Source of the DNA: Eledone cirrhosa | Lineage: Eukaryota | Direction: 5' to 3' | Assembly: GCA_964016885.1 (NCBI GenBank) | Contig: OZ024745.1 | Span: 69,316,001-69,380,000, forward strand | DNA: 64,000 bases | Shown here: one piece after another, positions 7,371-63,132 of the stretch | How positions within the stretch are numbered: position 1 is the stretch's first letter | Layout of the letters: the number at the start of each line of letters is the position of its first letter | The notes under the pieces: model-generated | The model's database searches: none | What the model was told of the DNA's origin: nothing | Seen by the model: only the letters and a program-made list of their open reading frames with translations | Program-made: the position numbers and the translations under genes

Positions 7371-7595
7371 TATATATATATATATATATATATATATATA
7401 TATATATATATATATATATATATATATATATATATTGTTATACTTTGGGAGGGTCATGTTGCCAATAAGGAACACACGCACCAGTTGATTTCACTTCAAT
7501 TTATTATTATAATAAATTTATAATAAATTTATAAATTTATAAATTTCTGGTTGGTTGGTTGGTTGGTTCCACAACCAGATAGTTGTTTATATATT

Positions 7596-7639
7596 GTCAT
7601 TAGTTCTTTCGTCACACACTCCGTGACCTCTTCAGTGAC
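7596..7639 (-). ncRNA. Minimal type I hammerhead-like motif (P1, left arm)
   Basis: Reverse strand reads GUCA CUGAAGA G GUCAC-ggagugu-GUGAC GAAAG AA CUA AUGAC. Confidence 0.55.
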
Positions 7640-7840
7640 TGGGGATTCCTTTCTTTGTTTCTGTGCCTCTCCTTTGTTCTGTCCTACGCCATTTTGTTTC
7701 TGTGTGTGCGTTGTGTGCTCAGTCTGCGCATGCGCCACATCCGGGTGTCTGTGTGTGTTTATGTTCATTTATTTATTTGTTTATTTACATGTTACTGGTT
7801 GGTTGTTTGTTCTATGTGTTTGTGTGTTTTCATTTTGTCC

Positions 7841-9272
7841 TTAACTGTAAGTTGTGATGTTGCTGTTCCACTCATATTTTCTATTTAATTTTGGTTGTAA
7901 TTCTTTTATGTTTATTGCCTCTGTAATTTGTCTAAACATTGCGTCTTTTCTGTGTGTAGATTCTATTTTTATTTCTATGTTCTCTAATTTACCCTTGTGT
8001 TCTATTTTAGCATGTTGGTAGAGTACAGATGATTCTTTACTATCTTGAAGGTCTCGCCAGTGTTCATTTATCCGTTCCCCTACACTACGAGCTGTCTCAC
8101 CTATGTACACTATATTTTTGTCTCTACATTGTCCTTCAGTACATCTTATGCTATACACTACATTTCTAGTTTTACAGTTAATATGGGGGCTTATTTTACA
8201 GGTTATACATTTCTTATCTATACATGAGTGTCTTTGAAAAGGGCATGTCTTGCTAATAAGTGTTTTTACGGAGGTACCTGGTCTTTCTACTATCTTAATA
8301 TTGAGTTTATGTTTATTTAGGGCCCTTCTAAATTTGTAAGCTAATTCACCTCTAGCGGTTGTATCGATGAACATTACACTCTGGTATTTATTGCTATCAT
8401 ACCATGAGTTTATTCTATTAGCCTTGTTCCTAGTTCTTTCTATTCTATTCCAAAATTTGCTGCTATACAAGGGGCAGGTCCCATTTATGTCATTATTTAC
8501 CATTTTGCCCATTTGGTTCTGGCTCCTCTATACACTCTGATTTTATCTCTCTGATTGTAGCCAGAGAACTGCATACGGTGGATGAAGTGTTGTATGTGTC
8601 TCTCTAGTTCTTCGGGGTTGCACATGCGGGACACGTTTCTCATCCCCCGTACCAAATCCTCAATCAGTATGTTGATTTTGGTATGGTCCGAAACGGCTGA
8701 GTTTCGGTGGATCAGATGTTTGGAAGTCATGGGTTGGCATAATGGGAATGGAGGATTTGTTTTTTGTTATTAATGGTATCTAACCAGAGCTCTGTGTCTA
8801 GTACAGGTAATCGATGGTTGGGGTGTCTACTTGGGTAGTCTATAGTAACTCTAATGCTCTGGTGGATGGAATTAGCTATTTGCTGGATGCTTTCCATTGT
8901 GTTTTTCTCTAGTTCCTGACTGTTCTCTAGTGGGGGTGTCTTAACTACGATGTTTATATCATCAACGTTGCGGGAGTACATTATCAGGGTTAAGGGCTCT
9001 TCTAATTGTTCTTTAAGCTTAAGTTTAAGTATACTGTCCCACCATACCATGAATAAGTTAGCTATGTCGCCTGCAATGCTAACACCAATGGCTGCTCCTT
9101 CCTCTTGGGCATATGCTTTTCCATTAAATTTGAACATATGTTCCTTAAGGGTTAGTTTTATGCTGGCACCTACCGCATGTGCAATCATTTTCTTCAGTTC
9201 ATCGTGGTTTTCGGGTGTCCGTATGGCTCTGGTCCACCCGTTCCATCTATCTGTGTGGGTTTTCTTGGCCAT
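7841..9272 (-). pseudogene. PLE RT C-terminal part plus GIY-YIG endonuclease, frameshifted
   Basis: FKFNGKAYAQEEGAAIGVSIAGDIANLFM, YSRNVDDI (YxRYVDD variant), LPVLDTEL; then Cys-rich linker, VVYSIRC...YIGETARSVGERINEH...EAINIKELQPKLN. Split over ORFs 8727-9272, 8497-8730 and 7841-8512. Confidence 0.9.
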
Positions 9273-9352
9273 TGAGGTAATGGTAGGACCTTAGCAAACT
9301 GTGCCCTACAAGACCAGCAAGAGGCAGACCACCTACCATTACCTCAATCAGA

Positions 9353-10048
9353 GTGTATAGAGGAGCCAGAACCAAATGGGAAAAAATGGTAAATAATGAC
9401 ATAAATGGGGCCTGCCCCTTGTATAGGAGCAAATTTTGGAATAGAATAGAAAGAACTAGGAACAAGGCTAATAGAATAAACTCATGGTATGATAGCAATA
9501 AATACCAGAGTGTAATGTTCATCGATACAACCTCTAGAGGTGAATTAGCTTACAAATTTAGAAGGGCCCTAAATAAACATAAACTCAATATTAAGATAGT
9601 AGAAAGACCAGGTACCTCCGTAAAAACAATTATTAGCAAGATATACCCTTTTCAAAGACCCTCATGTATAGATAAGAAATGTATAACCTGTAAAATAAGC
9701 ACCCATATTAACTGTAAAACTAGAAATGTAGTGTATAGCATAAGATGTACTGAAGGACAATGTAGAGACAAAAATATAGTGTACATAGGTGAGACAGCTC
9801 GTAGTGTAGGGGAACGAATAAATGAACACTGGCGAGACCTTCAAGATAGTAAAGAATCATCTGTACTCTACCAACATGCTAAAATAGAACACAAGGGTAA
9901 ATTAGAGAACATAGAAATAAAAATAGAATCTACACACAGAAAAGACGCAATGTTTAGACAAATTACAGAGGCAATAAACATAAAAGAATTACAACCAAAA
10001 TTAAATAGAAAATATGAGTGGAACAGCAACATCACAACTTACAATTAA
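9353..10048 (+). pseudogene. PLE linker plus GIY-YIG endonuclease, 5'-truncated
   Basis: 231-aa ORF with VVYSIRC...VYIGETARSVGERINEH; near-identical to the 7841-8512 product. Confidence 0.9.
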
Positions 10049-10249
10049 GGACAAAATGAAAACACACAAACACATAGAACAAACAACCAACCAGTAACAT
10101 GTAAATAAACAAATAAATAAATGAACATAAACACACACAGACACCCGGATGTGGCGCATGCGCAGACTGAGCACACAACACACACACAGAAACAAAGTGG
10201 CGTAGGACAGAACAAAGGAGAGGCACAGAAACAAAGAAAGGAATCCCCA

Positions 10250-60489: not shown

Positions 60490-60594
60490 GTGATGATGAT
60501 GATGAAGATAATGATGATGATGACGATGATGATGATGATGAGGATGATGATGATGATGATGATGTTGGTGATGATGACGTTGATGATAATGATG
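60490..60594. repeat. (GAT)n microsatellite
   Basis: Direct imperfect run. Confidence 0.9.
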
Positions 60595-61608
60595 CGTTCT
60601 GTTTCTTTACAAAGATTATCATGCAAATGAACGTCCGATACGTGAGTTAACCTGTTAATGATTGTATATACCAAGTGTATATTTCAAAAGCGTTTTCCAA
60701 TATATATCAATGTGATAAAGCTGGTCATTTGAATGACAGACAGGTACATTACACCCGGCATGTCTCCGAAAAGTTTCCGTTTACACAATTTCTCTCATGA
60801 TGCTTGGATCGAGCCGTGTCTATGGTAAAATTCTTGTCACAAATATCGCACTGTTTTATCGAAAATGAGATATAGTGTTTGCACCATAACTCTGAGCCAC
60901 GTATGCCTATATAGTATGTAGTTGTTTAGTGTTCCATGGGGTAGGTTATACAATATATCTCTTAACATCCTATAATGATTTACCAAAATATATAAAAATG
61001 ATTTTGATTATTCAAATGTTTATATTATCTTTAGTTGTGAAAACTTCCTTTGTTTGTATGAATAAGACCTTAATTCTTAACGTGAGGCAGGCATATCTAT
61101 GTATTTATGTTTGTGTTTTTTAATAAATTCTTGCTAAACCGATATTTTAATGTAATACAGCTTGATTATTGTCAAGGCGGTTGATGTTTGAGCAAGACAA
61201 GACTGCTGTTTCCAGCATTTCAAATGACGATGTATATATAGACTCTCTTTGTAAATATACTTCTTAGGCAGAAGTCGAAAGAATAACATCTGGCAAAGTC
61301 AAGGCCTTTATAAATATATTTGTAGAAATAATATTTTATCGATTATGCTGAGTATTTAAATACAAATAAAATAGGAAACAAATATGGCCAATTATGCAAA
61401 TACAATTATCTACCAATGTATATCTCGTTAAAAATCTCGACTTTCTATTTTTGTGACTTGTATTTAAATGGTTTATATACTATATTTTAAATATTCCTTT
61501 ATCTGTTAGTCGTTTGCATTTCATTAACATTTAAGCAACTCAATAGCAATTTACTAGAAAATATATATGTATATACATACATATGTATATATATATATAT
61601 GAATATAT

Positions 61609-62188
61609 ATCCATACGTACATATATATATGTGTGCATGTATATGTATATATATATACATACTACTGTACGTCTGTATACATATATGTATGTACGTATAC
61701 ATACTTATATTTAAGTAACAGCCGTACTAAGAGTGGGAAATGAAATTTCGTTTCATTTTTTCCGTTCATCGTTTTCGGTGCACCCGGCCGATTAACCCAC
61801 TCGATATGCAAATTGGGCTACTCAGCCGTTAATATGTATAAGGAAAGTATATACTTGCAGACGTTCAATCATCTGACAGGAAGGTGTACGTTGCTTACGA
61901 TTGCTAATAAGCTTGAAACTAGTACAGCGTTCTTTGTCAGTGTTGAACAAACGAGCAACGATGGTTGCTAGACACTACGGCTTAATACGGGATGTTTGTT
62001 TACAAACACACCGAACGTTATAATAAATGTTCGGTTCAATCCATACGTACATATATATATGTGCGCATGTATATATATACATACTACTGTACGTCTGTAT
62101 ACATATATGTATGTACGTATACATACTTATATTTAAGTAACAGCCGTACTAAGAGTGGGAAATGAAATTTCGTTTCATTTTTTCCGTT
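61609..62188. repeat. Two direct repeats of about 150 bp (61609-61766, 62039-62188) flanked by TA-rich runs
   Basis: Near-identical copies ending ...gaaatttcgtttcattttttccgtt. Confidence 0.9.
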
Positions 62189-62515
62189 TATATATATATG
62201 TATATATATATATGTACACATATATATACATATGTACATATATATATATATATATATATGTATATACATATGTATTTACATATATATATATATGTGTGTG
62301 ATTGATACATGTGCACACACACACACACATATATACATATATGATTGTATTTAAAGTATGTGTGAGGTAATCACAAATAATATTGTATTCAGCTTAGTGT
62401 ACTCTACGTAATGCACAAGAGGATCTATTTACTCCGGAGTATAATGATGGTCATGACGTACAAGTCAACTGATTAGAATATATATATATATATATATATA
62501 TATATATATATATAT

Positions 62516-62794
62516 GTAGGAGGTGAGTTTTATTGTAGTACAATAAAGCAATGCATCGGATAAGAAGCACTCTACAGTTTGTAGGACTGGAGTATACATA
62601 ATATATAAGATCAAAAGATGGTTAAATGAGTTCCATGTATTTTATTATGCGCATTTCAATAACAACCCGAAACAGTACTTTATGTTAAGACTGTATGGAT
62701 CTGAACAATCAATGATCACCGAATGGTACATCAGTTCTGTTTTTCGATCAATCAGAACAACCATCGTAACCGACAGATGTCCCCTAAGACATCA
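62516..62794. mobile_element. Chimeric insertion: ends of two different families joined back to back between (TA)n runs
   Basis: 62598-62659 matches the arm of the 62818-63132 palindrome; 62660-62794 matches 7235-7370. Confidence 0.78.
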
Positions 62795-62817
62795 TATATA
62801 TATATATATATATATAT

Positions 62818-63132
62818 AATATATAAGAACAAAAGATGGTTAAAGGAGTTCCATGTATTTTATTATGCGCATTTCAAAAACAAACATCATCATGCAATAA
62901 CATTTGTGTTTTCATCAGATAAAATAGGAGGACATGATATGAAGGTTAAAAAACACTTGTGGATATGTTGATTTAAAACTGCACTATCCACAAATGTTTT
63001 TTAACCTTCATATCATGTCCTCCTATTTTATCTGATGAAAACACAAATGTTATTGCATGATGATATTTGTTTTTGAAATGCGCATAATAAAATACATGGA
63101 ACTCATTTAACCATCTTTTGATCTTATATATT
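62818..63132. mobile_element. Hammerhead-containing palindrome in (TA)n
   Basis: Arms 62818-62965 and 62985-63132, 19-nt spacer, about four mismatches. Confidence 0.9.
63024..63094 (+). ncRNA. Type I hammerhead ribozyme (inverse copy 62856-62926)
   Basis: UAUUUUAU CUGAUGA [long stem II CAAAUGUUAU/AUGAUAUUUG] GAAA UGCGCA UA^AUAAAAUA; 8-bp stem I, palindromic stem III. Confidence 0.78.

Follow-up and report, generated by a model that had tools for sequence, protein, structure and literature searches.

Closest described systems

Two parts of the arrangement analysed here are already published. An inverted copy with a one-sided tail at a (TA)n target was described by Craig et al. 2021 (PMC8557442, text and Fig. 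2 legend) and by Arkhipova et al. 2013 (PMC3846280), so that the architecture is no new system, and internal priming at two sites, with two RT start sites bounding the tail, was shown by Frangieh et al. 2024 (PMC11167929). In the passage on the subject, Craig et al. named the origin of inverted pseudo-LTRs and one-sided tails an open problem. No open-access account was found of a further feature, namely that the fold-back point is non-random: arms accumulate at a Y|A site that differs between families, next to an extra base.

Like most elements studied here, the Hydra-clade Penelope-like elements (PLEs) have, in the sections of PMC8557442 devoted to them, a single frame with RT and C-terminal GIY-YIG, RWK-like and DKT motifs, a CxCX5C linker, no CCHH, hammerheads, insertion into (TA)n, an inverted 5′-truncated copy and a tail at one end. 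Their tails measure 30-40 nt, compared with 73-165 nt here, and the sections covered do not describe what most copies here look like: tiny palindromes whose inner limit is fixed and bears an extra G. Families A and D resemble Neptune/Nematis-type PLEs in their CX4CxxC linker, CCHH-type EN, (TA)n targets and tails of 37-58 nt; they are assigned to Neptune/Nematis jointly.

In vitro, the Poseidon element PAc nicks and extends both target strands and uses two internal RT start sites, accepts uncleaved RNA and is a predicted dimer (passages on PAc in PMC11167929). These passages report no start-site difference between strands and no target homology, and contain no analysis of run-off at the RNA start. 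Insertions here pair a long end with a short one, and a TA motif underlies every short end. Cervera and De la Pena 2014 (PMC4209133) ascribed opposite-strand pairs of minimal hammerheads 100-700 bp apart to truncated PLEs; the passages covered contain no mechanism or junction analysis. L1 twin priming, as presented in part of PMC4859970, also involves two primers from two target strands and an untemplated G at the RNA start, but it inverts non-overlapping parts, whereas here both cDNAs would copy the same stretch and so yield a palindrome. Non-LTR retrozymes (bioRxiv 10.64898/2026.07.22.740005, relevant passages) are similarly short, hammerhead-bearing, pLTR-related and PLE-dependent, but form head-to-tail tandems, unlike the head-to-head pairs with a one-sided tail found here.

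Layout of the window

The window is a stretch of 64,000 nt from Eledone cirrhosa (GCA_964016885.1, OZ024745.1, positions 69,316,001-69,380,000, forward strand) and contains ten families, A to J (Table 1). Arm comparison found inverted arms of 84-99% identity at all 11 loci for which a shared arm, an inverted arm and a one-sided tail had been predicted; (TA)n directly follows one arm, while the other bears an extension, the tail, so that the layout is real. Predicted GIY-YIG/RT remnants were confirmed at 7841-9290 (-), 9287-10048 (+) and 55060-55719 (-). Some tails required correction. The element at 52669-52776, whose tail had been considered uncertain, has a clear 160-nt tail reaching 52935, while the tail expected for 62818-63132 is absent, 62819-63131 being tail-less on both sides with a separate tailed arm at 62515-62665. 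The 115-nt tail at 56741 exists in that copy but is atypical because its short arm stops ~55-60 nt before the family short end; the family G tail is 73-76 nt. Family F is ~70% like family G. Judging from frame continuity, the first ~50 nt of the family A arm at 9296..10452 look like a template-switched piece.

Table 1. Coordinates of PLE-related features in the window (positions are those of the window; strand "." where no orientation is assigned).
Family	Feature	Position	Strand	Details
A	Tail-less inverted arm, 5′-truncated Neptune/Nematis-type PLE	7433..9290	-	
A	RT remnant	8727-9290	-	within arm 7433..9290
A	EN frame	7841-8527	-	within arm 7433..9290
A	Hammerhead core	~7635	-	descriptor
A	Tailed arm	9296..10452	+	thumb/EN frame to 10048; hammerhead core 10254
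A	Tail into (TA)n	10453..10510	+	58 nt
A	Second copy, single-armed, tailed	32551..34148	+	GIY-YIG 33100-33672
B	Short palindrome and tail	32018..32210	+	tail 32130-32210
B	Extra inverted tail piece	32243-32274		beside 32018..32210
B	Truncated palindrome	48410..48499	.	
B	Palindrome	49107..49303	+	putative run-off site (+1 A) 49165; tail 49226-49303, 78 nt
C	Tail and 50-nt arm	38208..38357	-	tail 38208-38307, 100 nt
C	Tail-less arm (3′ untranslated region)	38343..39412	+	hammerhead 39322-39366
D	Palindrome	48590..49022	-	centre GATC ~48824; tail 48590-48626
E	Tailed arm	53584..55719	-	tail 53584-53659; 3′ untranslated region; Hydra-type EN 55060-55719
E	Template-switched piece and tail-less arm	55836..56364	+	piece 55836-55944; hammerhead core ~56272
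F	Tail, tailed arm and longer tail-less arm	57843..58768	.	tail 57843-57924; tailed arm to 58114 (-); tail-less arm to 58768 (+)
G	Palindrome and tail	56741..57067	+	hammerhead core 56880
H	Inverted arm, tailed arm and tail	47431..47992	+	tail 47904-47992
I	Palindrome and 160-nt tail	52669..52935	+	palindrome 52669-52776
J	Tail and 65-nt arm	62515..62665	-	tail 62515-62600
J	Palindrome, two short ends	62819..63131	.	+1 site 62963; two hammerhead cores

Parent elements

Extension in the 5′ direction led to a parent with GIY-YIG/RT coding sequence for nine of the ten families, seven Hydra-type and two Neptune/Nematis-type, supporting the predicted PLE origin. These nine families correspond to the 3′ ends of PLEs that have coding sequence and untranslated 3′ regions of 0.4-2 kb, and their palindromes are PLE insertion products and not separate non-coding parasites; of the two possibilities that had been proposed, products of or parasites on PLE enzymes, the former stands and the latter is unsupported for these families. 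No parent ORF was found for family F within ~1.4 kb in the four 6-kb stretches examined.

The family C parent has a stop-free 913-codon Hydra-type frame that includes both RT and GIY-YIG (L165), with RWR (RWK-like) and DKT motifs, a region absent from the fetched copies of other families. In L163 and L165, the end and tail are followed by the ORF 81 nt past the long end, a partial tandem forming a pseudo-LTR that was seen only in family C. The family G parent has RT and EN in L116, and EN pieces lie within the same insertions in L065 and L118. Hydra-type EN was also found for family B (L129, L138-L140), upstream of families H (L263/L266) and J (L243/L245) and, on the sense strand, for family I (L365 and L366/L367). 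Neptune/Nematis-type EN lies upstream of family D (L186/L188), for which a query of 48590-48740 had no matches and an inner query gave copies.

The CxCX5C linker without CCHH in the EN, a Hydra-clade feature, is present in families B, C, E, G, H, I and J, and the CX2-5CxxC linker with a CCHH-type EN, a Neptune/Nematis feature, in A and D. The family C repeat unit (~4.8 kb) exceeds the "short elements (<3 kb)" of the Hydra clade, a size that is not strictly defining because the paper says "generally"; elements here exceed 3 kb because of 3′ untranslated regions as long as 1-2 kb. Recognition of these proteins by Pfam is marginal (GIY-YIG, E=3e-4 to 4e-4, just under the cut-off), and none of the 249 homologues at E<=1e-20 is named.

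Outer ends and (TA)n target

Among 70 palindromes in copies fetched without selection, 59 had one long, tailed end and one short end, one had two short ends, none had two long ends and 10 were unclassified. The outer ends are thus fixed at two positions, as expected, and do not form symmetric terminal inverted repeats. Insertions with two long ends are present in selected sets (L097, L111, L072, L165). TATATA lies within 8 nt of 212 of the 236 long or short ends in the unselected copies. For positions drawn at random, the share is 12% in the fetched loci and, allowing 6 nt, 8% in the window, which supports the predicted (TA)n targeting. In all ten families, the short end falls on a TA, TAT or AAT motif of the element itself, in line with the earlier proposal for the tail-less arm; priming of both target strands is likewise supported. 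In contigs of another sample, TA loose ends occur at the same long end. The main joint table of contigs from one other sample lists no strand-change joints, and those contigs therefore give no direct support for individual palindromes.

Arm comparison and inner limit

Arms matched at birth in families J and B: private changes per arm occur at the rate of the tail (J, 0.0048 vs 0.0052; B, 0.0083 vs 0.0086), and only two in J and none in B are common to both arms. Neither family has signs of gene conversion between arms, and an arm-concordance pattern for family B had no matches. In family G, 18 private changes are common to both arms, for which a model of two cDNAs gives no explanation. Tail-less arms often reach further 5′ than tailed arms.

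The predicted variability of inner fold-back points is correct insofar as junctions differ between copies, but they cluster at a family-specific site. In families B, D, F, G, H and J, this limit is a Y|A site. Where an extra base occurs, it is absent from the parent and sits just 5′ of the site. Among unselected arms, 39/52 end at 55-66 nt in B, 9/18 at 175-178 in J and 16/34 at 71-81 in H. Of 112 truncated family B arms, 28 end at +1 itself, a count that rises to 91 when stops up to 9 nt downstream are included.

An extra non-parental G is present at the inner limit in families B, F and J. With a +1 site that was chosen after inspection of B and J, G accounts for 12 of 18 untemplated neighbours at +1 in family B vs 2 of 47 at other stops. 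Genome-wide, G/C occupies this position in 522 family B centres and A/T in 79, the parent base being T, while a control one base inward gave 14 vs 160; read-through copies have T in 100/100 among the matches listed (of 414). The G adjoins the tailed arm in 166 centres and is on the tail-less arm in 133, across several subfamilies. Hand counts of non-parental bases, which include bases possibly derived from the partner arm, gave G in 28/40 for family F and in 71/100 among the matches listed (of 2561) for family J. A short slip duplication could also yield G in family J. G occurs at the limit in 3/6 cases in family G; an excess was not seen in D, H or I (few arms in I), and 40 truncated family C arms had neither pile-up nor G. 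When the fetched loci of H, F and D were tested together, the difference did not reach significance (2/5 vs 5/48, p=0.12). An apparently fixed-centre master palindrome in family J was rejected as an artefact of query selection.

Hammerheads

A type I hammerhead in the pLTR is a feature of EN+ PLEs. As predicted, five families in the window have hammerhead cores (A, C, E, G and J). Together with the parent of family I, these carry full predicted cores; those of B and F are degenerate, and none was found in D or H. The descriptor matched six distinct sites in the window (A 7635-/10254+/33886+, G 56880+, J 62918-/63032+), compared with 0-2 per shuffle in 20 shuffles. The family C hammerhead scores 31.7 bits against Rfam Hammerhead_1, short of the gathering score of 34 bits, and that of family E was recognised by eye and fold; otherwise Rfam gave only hairpin-type miRNA noise among the matches listed (150 of 236). 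The predicted cut lies 20-60 nt from the short end in B, C, G and J, and was rejected by distance as a general inner limit in these families. In family I, where 21 of the 68 arms were not placeable, truncated arms end 0-8 nt past the predicted cut, and the inner limit may be the hammerhead cut instead of run-off.

Origin of the palindromes

We conclude that the palindromes are most probably end pieces of (TA)n-targeting PLEs, likely made from two separately primed cDNAs. One cDNA probably started at the far (long) RT start and the other at the near (short) one, and a head-to-head joint between them is likely. An extra G on either arm fits two independently primed cDNAs that would have run off a capped RNA start and been joined tip to tip.

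It is possible, though we favour it less, that the short palindromes are non-autonomous parasites, transcribed from their own start site, containing both RT start sites and re-mobilised in trans by PLE enzymes. Many source copies would give the shared private changes of family G, and the lack of a nearby ORF in family F points the same way. Short arms also outnumber coding parts: in another sample, family C depth, a summed contig depth and not a copy number, is ~1,000 at the ORF start vs 95,000-122,000 over the 115 nt that precede the short end. Penelope of D. virilis is reported to have an internal promoter, according to a passage in a citing paper. However, no master palindrome emerges, centres varying between copies; the commonest family B centre occurs in both orientations and several subfamilies, the fixed J centre was artefactual, nine of ten families continue into coding PLEs, and the parent RNA alone would yield the same short products.

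Less probably, the inner limit would be an uncapped RNA end or an RT stall, with G reflecting a preference in untemplated addition and not cap copying. RTs add untemplated bases at template ends, the family B limit lies within a hairpin, and family I arms stop at or just past the predicted cut. Against this, the B control places the G at one position only, limits coincide with Y|A sites in six families and, for B, C, G and J, lie away from the predicted hammerhead cut, and family I, the candidate for a ribozyme-made end, has no excess of G (few arms).

Alternatively, one cDNA begun at the long site could fold back and copy itself until its TA motif anneals to the second target strand. This would account for the TA motif at every short end and for subfamily variants common to both arms (89 shared vs 8 unshared in family J), yet as the main route it is largely refuted and very unlikely. 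It predicts G on the tailed arm only, contrary to 133 of 299 centres, and a tail-less arm that is never longer 5′, contrary to A, C and F in the window; 522 centres have a 1-nt loop, which cannot self-prime, and many long copies are single-armed, ending at the short site. Lastly, DNA transposons such as MITEs, or artefacts that arise when (TA)n tracts are assembled or replicated, would explain inverted arms flanked by TA but are scarcely credible, given the asymmetric ends, parents that encode RT and GIY-YIG in nine of ten families with no DDE parent found, arms differing by 1-16% with individual junctions, and TA loose ends at the same long end in contigs of another sample.

For the two-cDNA origin, the following course can be proposed. 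Pol II would start within the pseudo-LTR at the initiator-like Y|A site, 60-205 nt before the short end, and cap the RNA. The GIY-YIG domain would nick both strands of the (TA)n tract, whereupon one 3′-OH would prime at the long site (in family C, the sole family with known following sequence, only one T matches the target) and the other at the short site, where base-pairing with the TA of the element itself would help. In vitro, a PLE nicked both strands and used two internal start sites (PAc passages in PMC11167929). RT would usually run off within 60-370 nt because both start sites are proposed to lie near the RNA 5′ end, often copying the cap as C; an untemplated 5′ G is a cap mark in L1/SVA (relevant part of PMC4859970). 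Microhomology or end-joining would then unite the two tips, accompanied by small gains and losses and by template jumps. Longer or full-length copies might arise when read-through RNA, tandem RNA or a switch to a different RNA carries RT past +1. The run-off cDNA would resemble LTR strong-stop DNA, which is likewise short and starts from a primer close to the 5′ end of the RNA; neither a tRNA primer nor an integrase is involved here. No run-off or cap model for PLEs was found in the open-access literature.

Implications

The junctions yield testable rules, namely that an insertion combines one long with one short start, that the latter pairs with TA and that run-off at a fixed site leaves a cap-type G on either arm, and they map likely promoters of several PLE families from DNA alone. 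More speculatively, PLEs might generally start near a capped RNA 5′ end and make a strong-stop-like cDNA per strand, paired run-off being the default; products with an internal promoter and both start sites could then be self-renewing, PLE-dependent palindromes in tens of thousands, filed as MITEs or unknown repeats. In a 2026 repeat annotation of Octopus vulgaris (PMC13282606), "palindrom" and "hammerhead" are absent from the main text. Many of the short repeats annotated as "MITE-like" in such genomes may be end pieces of PLEs.

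Palindromes of the window and their outer ends

The genome of E. cirrhosa spans 3.0 Gb; in the window, (TA)n is dense and GC content ranges from 28 to 51% (2-kb bins). Self-comparison with dinucleotide runs masked found inverted arms of 84-99% identity at all 11 loci proposed as palindromes, and these were sorted into ten families, A to J (table). Reading of the flanks bore out that one end runs into (TA)n while the other is extended, and full hammerhead cores lie within the window in A, C, E, G and J, the number of families anticipated. The original prediction was uncertain about the tail of family I, which is clear (160 nt), and allowed a possible one in the second family J palindrome, where none is present. 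The short arm of the family G copy ends early.

As predicted, copies in the loci fetched from the genome stop at two positions, the tailed long end and the tail-less short end (position 0). Bystander palindromes, those met unselected where a locus had been fetched for a different family, number 70: 59 combine one long and one short end, one has two short ends, none has two long ends and 10 have one end unclassified; palindromes with two long ends are present in the selected sets. TATATA lies within 8 nt of 212 of the 236 classified ends, as against 8-12% of positions picked at random and allowed 6 nt, in line with the expected adjacency to (TA)n. The tail-less arm does stop at a TA-like motif of the element itself, TA, TAT or AAT being found at 10/10 short ends. 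At the long end of family C, beyond which the sequence is known from tandem copies, a single T matches the target, and in these tandem copies the ORF begins 81 nt past that end.

The palindromes are real, made by Penelope-like elements (PLEs) and of known layout; they are no new system. Their architecture is known because it has already been described. Craig et al. (2021) report (TA)n targets, an inverted 5′-truncated copy and, on one side, a tail of 30-40 bp, and regard the mechanism as open. Arkhipova et al. (2013) describe the same layout. Frangieh et al. (2024) describe nicking and extension of both strands, with a tail bounded by two internal start sites of reverse transcription, and Cervera and De la Pena (2014) hammerhead pairs on opposite strands, derived from truncated PLEs.

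Palindrome families and other features of the window (numbers of copies at each end pool selected and unselected copies; a slash in a site marks the inner limit of the arms)
Feature	Window position	Long end	Short end	Inner-limit site
Family A	7433	7 at -57	9 at 0	
Family B	32018, 48410, 49107	50 at -78	60 at 0	TT/AGTC
Family C	38208			
Family D	48590			TC/AGAT
Family E	53584			
Family F	57843			CC/AGTG
Family G	56741	49 at -73	56 at 0	AC/ATAG or AC/ATTAG
Family H	47431	14 at -88	20 at 0	TT/AGTT
Family I	52669			
Family J	62515, 62819 (to 63131)	30 at -86	24 at 0	TC/ATAT
Older single-armed family A relatives, same short end	31500-31998, 44261-44340			
Template-switched pieces at junctions	55836-55944, 9296-9349			
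Further PLE remnant	36134-37210			
Neptune/Nematis-type EN of the remnant	36138-36578			
Short inverted piece of the remnant	36134-36169, 36367-36402			
Hammerhead-like motif of the remnant (by eye)	near 37090			
284-nt direct repeat, then helicase-like fragment	34949-36130			
Degenerate L1/Tx1-like LINE	22283-27400			
RT, then restriction-like endonuclease-type frame	45056-47131			
SINE-like family	3060-3267, 5560-5734, 15869, 19545, 31340, 40287, 44363, 60182			
136-nt piece in two copies	7235-7370, 62660-62794			
Other short inverted repeats, outside the finding	27802-27874, 29544-29616, 34371-34703			

Parent elements

A parent with reverse transcriptase (RT) and GIY-YIG endonuclease (EN) had been suggested for the families, and inward extension reached PLE coding sequence in nine. 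In A and E, this sequence lies inside the window itself; in B, the EN lies ~1 kb upstream in four loci, the shared sequence being contiguous; and the parent of C has a stop-free RT and EN frame of 913 codons. The parent of G (locus L116) carries RT and EN behind ~2 kb of untranslated sequence, and EN pieces occur within the same insertions as the palindrome in L065 and L118. Parents were also found for D (L186, L188), H (L263, L266), J (L243, L245) and I (L365, and L366/L367, which are duplicates), the link being weaker in I because the ENs of its loci differ from each other. Three copies of family F, whose end is ~70% like that of G, could be followed for ~1.4 kb without meeting an ORF. Families B, C, E, G, H, I and J have a CxCX5C linker without CCHH, given as the defining trait of the Hydra clade by Craig et al. 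(2021), and A and D a CX4CxxC linker with CCHH present.

The first ATG of family C (L165:5346-5430; also L163) closely follows an AG that has a branch-point-like CTGAC ahead of it, which suggests a putative 5′-UTR intron, as in D. virilis Penelope. A 52-bp unit of the family G 3′ untranslated region has grown into kb-scale tandem arrays in L073, L080, L082, L121 and L122.

Other elements of the window

The EN of the further PLE remnant is ~70% like that of the family D parent. This remnant interrupts the region of the helicase-like fragment, whose motif resembles that of a PIF1/Helitron helicase. The LINE has a long ORF1-like frame as well as AP-endonuclease-like and RT frames (RVT_1 E=7e-9), and the RT at 45056 (RVT_1 E=9e-9) has a relative in L168. 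ARAGORN found no tRNA in the dispersed SINE-like family, which resembles octopod SINEs. The two copies of the 136-nt piece are 98.5% identical and end at (TA)n, possibly being another PLE end.

Inner limit of the arms

Inner fold-back points had been expected to vary; each junction is individual, but the junctions cluster. Arms measure 55-66 nt in 39 of 52 bystander arms of family B, 175-178 nt in 9 of 18 of J and 71-81 nt in 16 of 34 of H, and mostly 155-170 nt in G and about 205 nt in D, where copies are largely selected. The inner limits are pyrimidine/A sites in B, H, F, D, J and G, which we take to be akin to the initiator element. The hammerhead cut was rejected as the inner limit in B, C, G and J, where the positions do not coincide. 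Family I arms end at or just past the predicted cut, weakly hinting that a ribozyme generates this end. In family C, 40 truncated arms are scattered and show no G.

At the family-specific inner site (+1), picked for B and J after the data had been seen, an untemplated G precedes the A in 12/18 family B arms ending there versus 2/47 at other stops, and in 4/7 versus 1/7 in J. The +1 A is at window position 49165 in B, 62963 in J and 58599 in F. Pooling the fetched loci of H, F and D gave no significant difference (2/5 versus 5/48), and the extra G is absent in D, H and I. Genome-wide pattern counts of family B centres whose arms both end at +1, separated by a single base, gave 522 G/C versus 79 A/T for that base; in read-through copies the position is T in 100/100 of the first matches listed (of 414). 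A control one base inward, with a pattern limited to one subfamily group, gave 14 versus 160. G makes up 28/40 of the non-parental bases in F (genome pattern) and 71/100 in J among the matches listed (of 2561), both hand-counted with partner-arm bases included. In published accounts of L1 and SVA, copying of the cap is generally recognised by an untemplated G at the 5′ end. A cap step is supported in three families, and is less certain than the mechanism as a whole.

Origin of the two arms

The palindromes are probably two joined cDNAs rather than a fold-back or a master copy. They probably arise by paired priming near the RNA 5′ end: two cDNAs would be primed at two internal sites close to this end, each would run off at the RNA start, which is probably capped, and their tips would be joined tip to tip. 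Extra template-switched pieces from farther upstream within the same element are seen at junctions (in the window and in L105, L118 and L189), suggesting that the RT jumps while the cDNAs are joined.

In another sample, the summed contig depth of family C is ~1,000 where the ORF starts and 55,000-78,000 over the tail bin; it reaches 95,000-122,000 across the final 115 nt of the arm, with 19,000-27,000 immediately past it. This profile fits many short copies, depth not being copy number. At the long end, contigs of that sample also show loose ends of TA. That short copies are re-mobilised in trans is a possible but less likely reading.

Fold-back of a single cDNA is very unlikely, since a 1-nt loop makes self-priming impossible, the tail-less arm is often the longer (A, C and F in the window) and the extra G occurs on either arm: in family B centres from several subfamilies, it adjoins the tailed arm 166 times and belongs to the tail-less arm 133 times. 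This placement of the G across subfamilies also speaks against a master-copy palindrome.

Two separate cDNAs were also examined by comparing the arms of 41 (J), 43 (B) and 34 (G) palindromes. Private changes in J and B are unshared between arms, with a per-arm rate equal to the tail rate; subfamily variants are shared versus unshared at 89 to 8 in J and only 44 to 35 in B. In G, 18 private changes are common to both arms and the tail rate is twice the per-arm rate, a pattern for which many source copies or arm-to-arm conversion may be responsible.

Paired priming with run-off was not met in the literature searched, and offers a concrete, testable handle on the open mechanism of PLEs.
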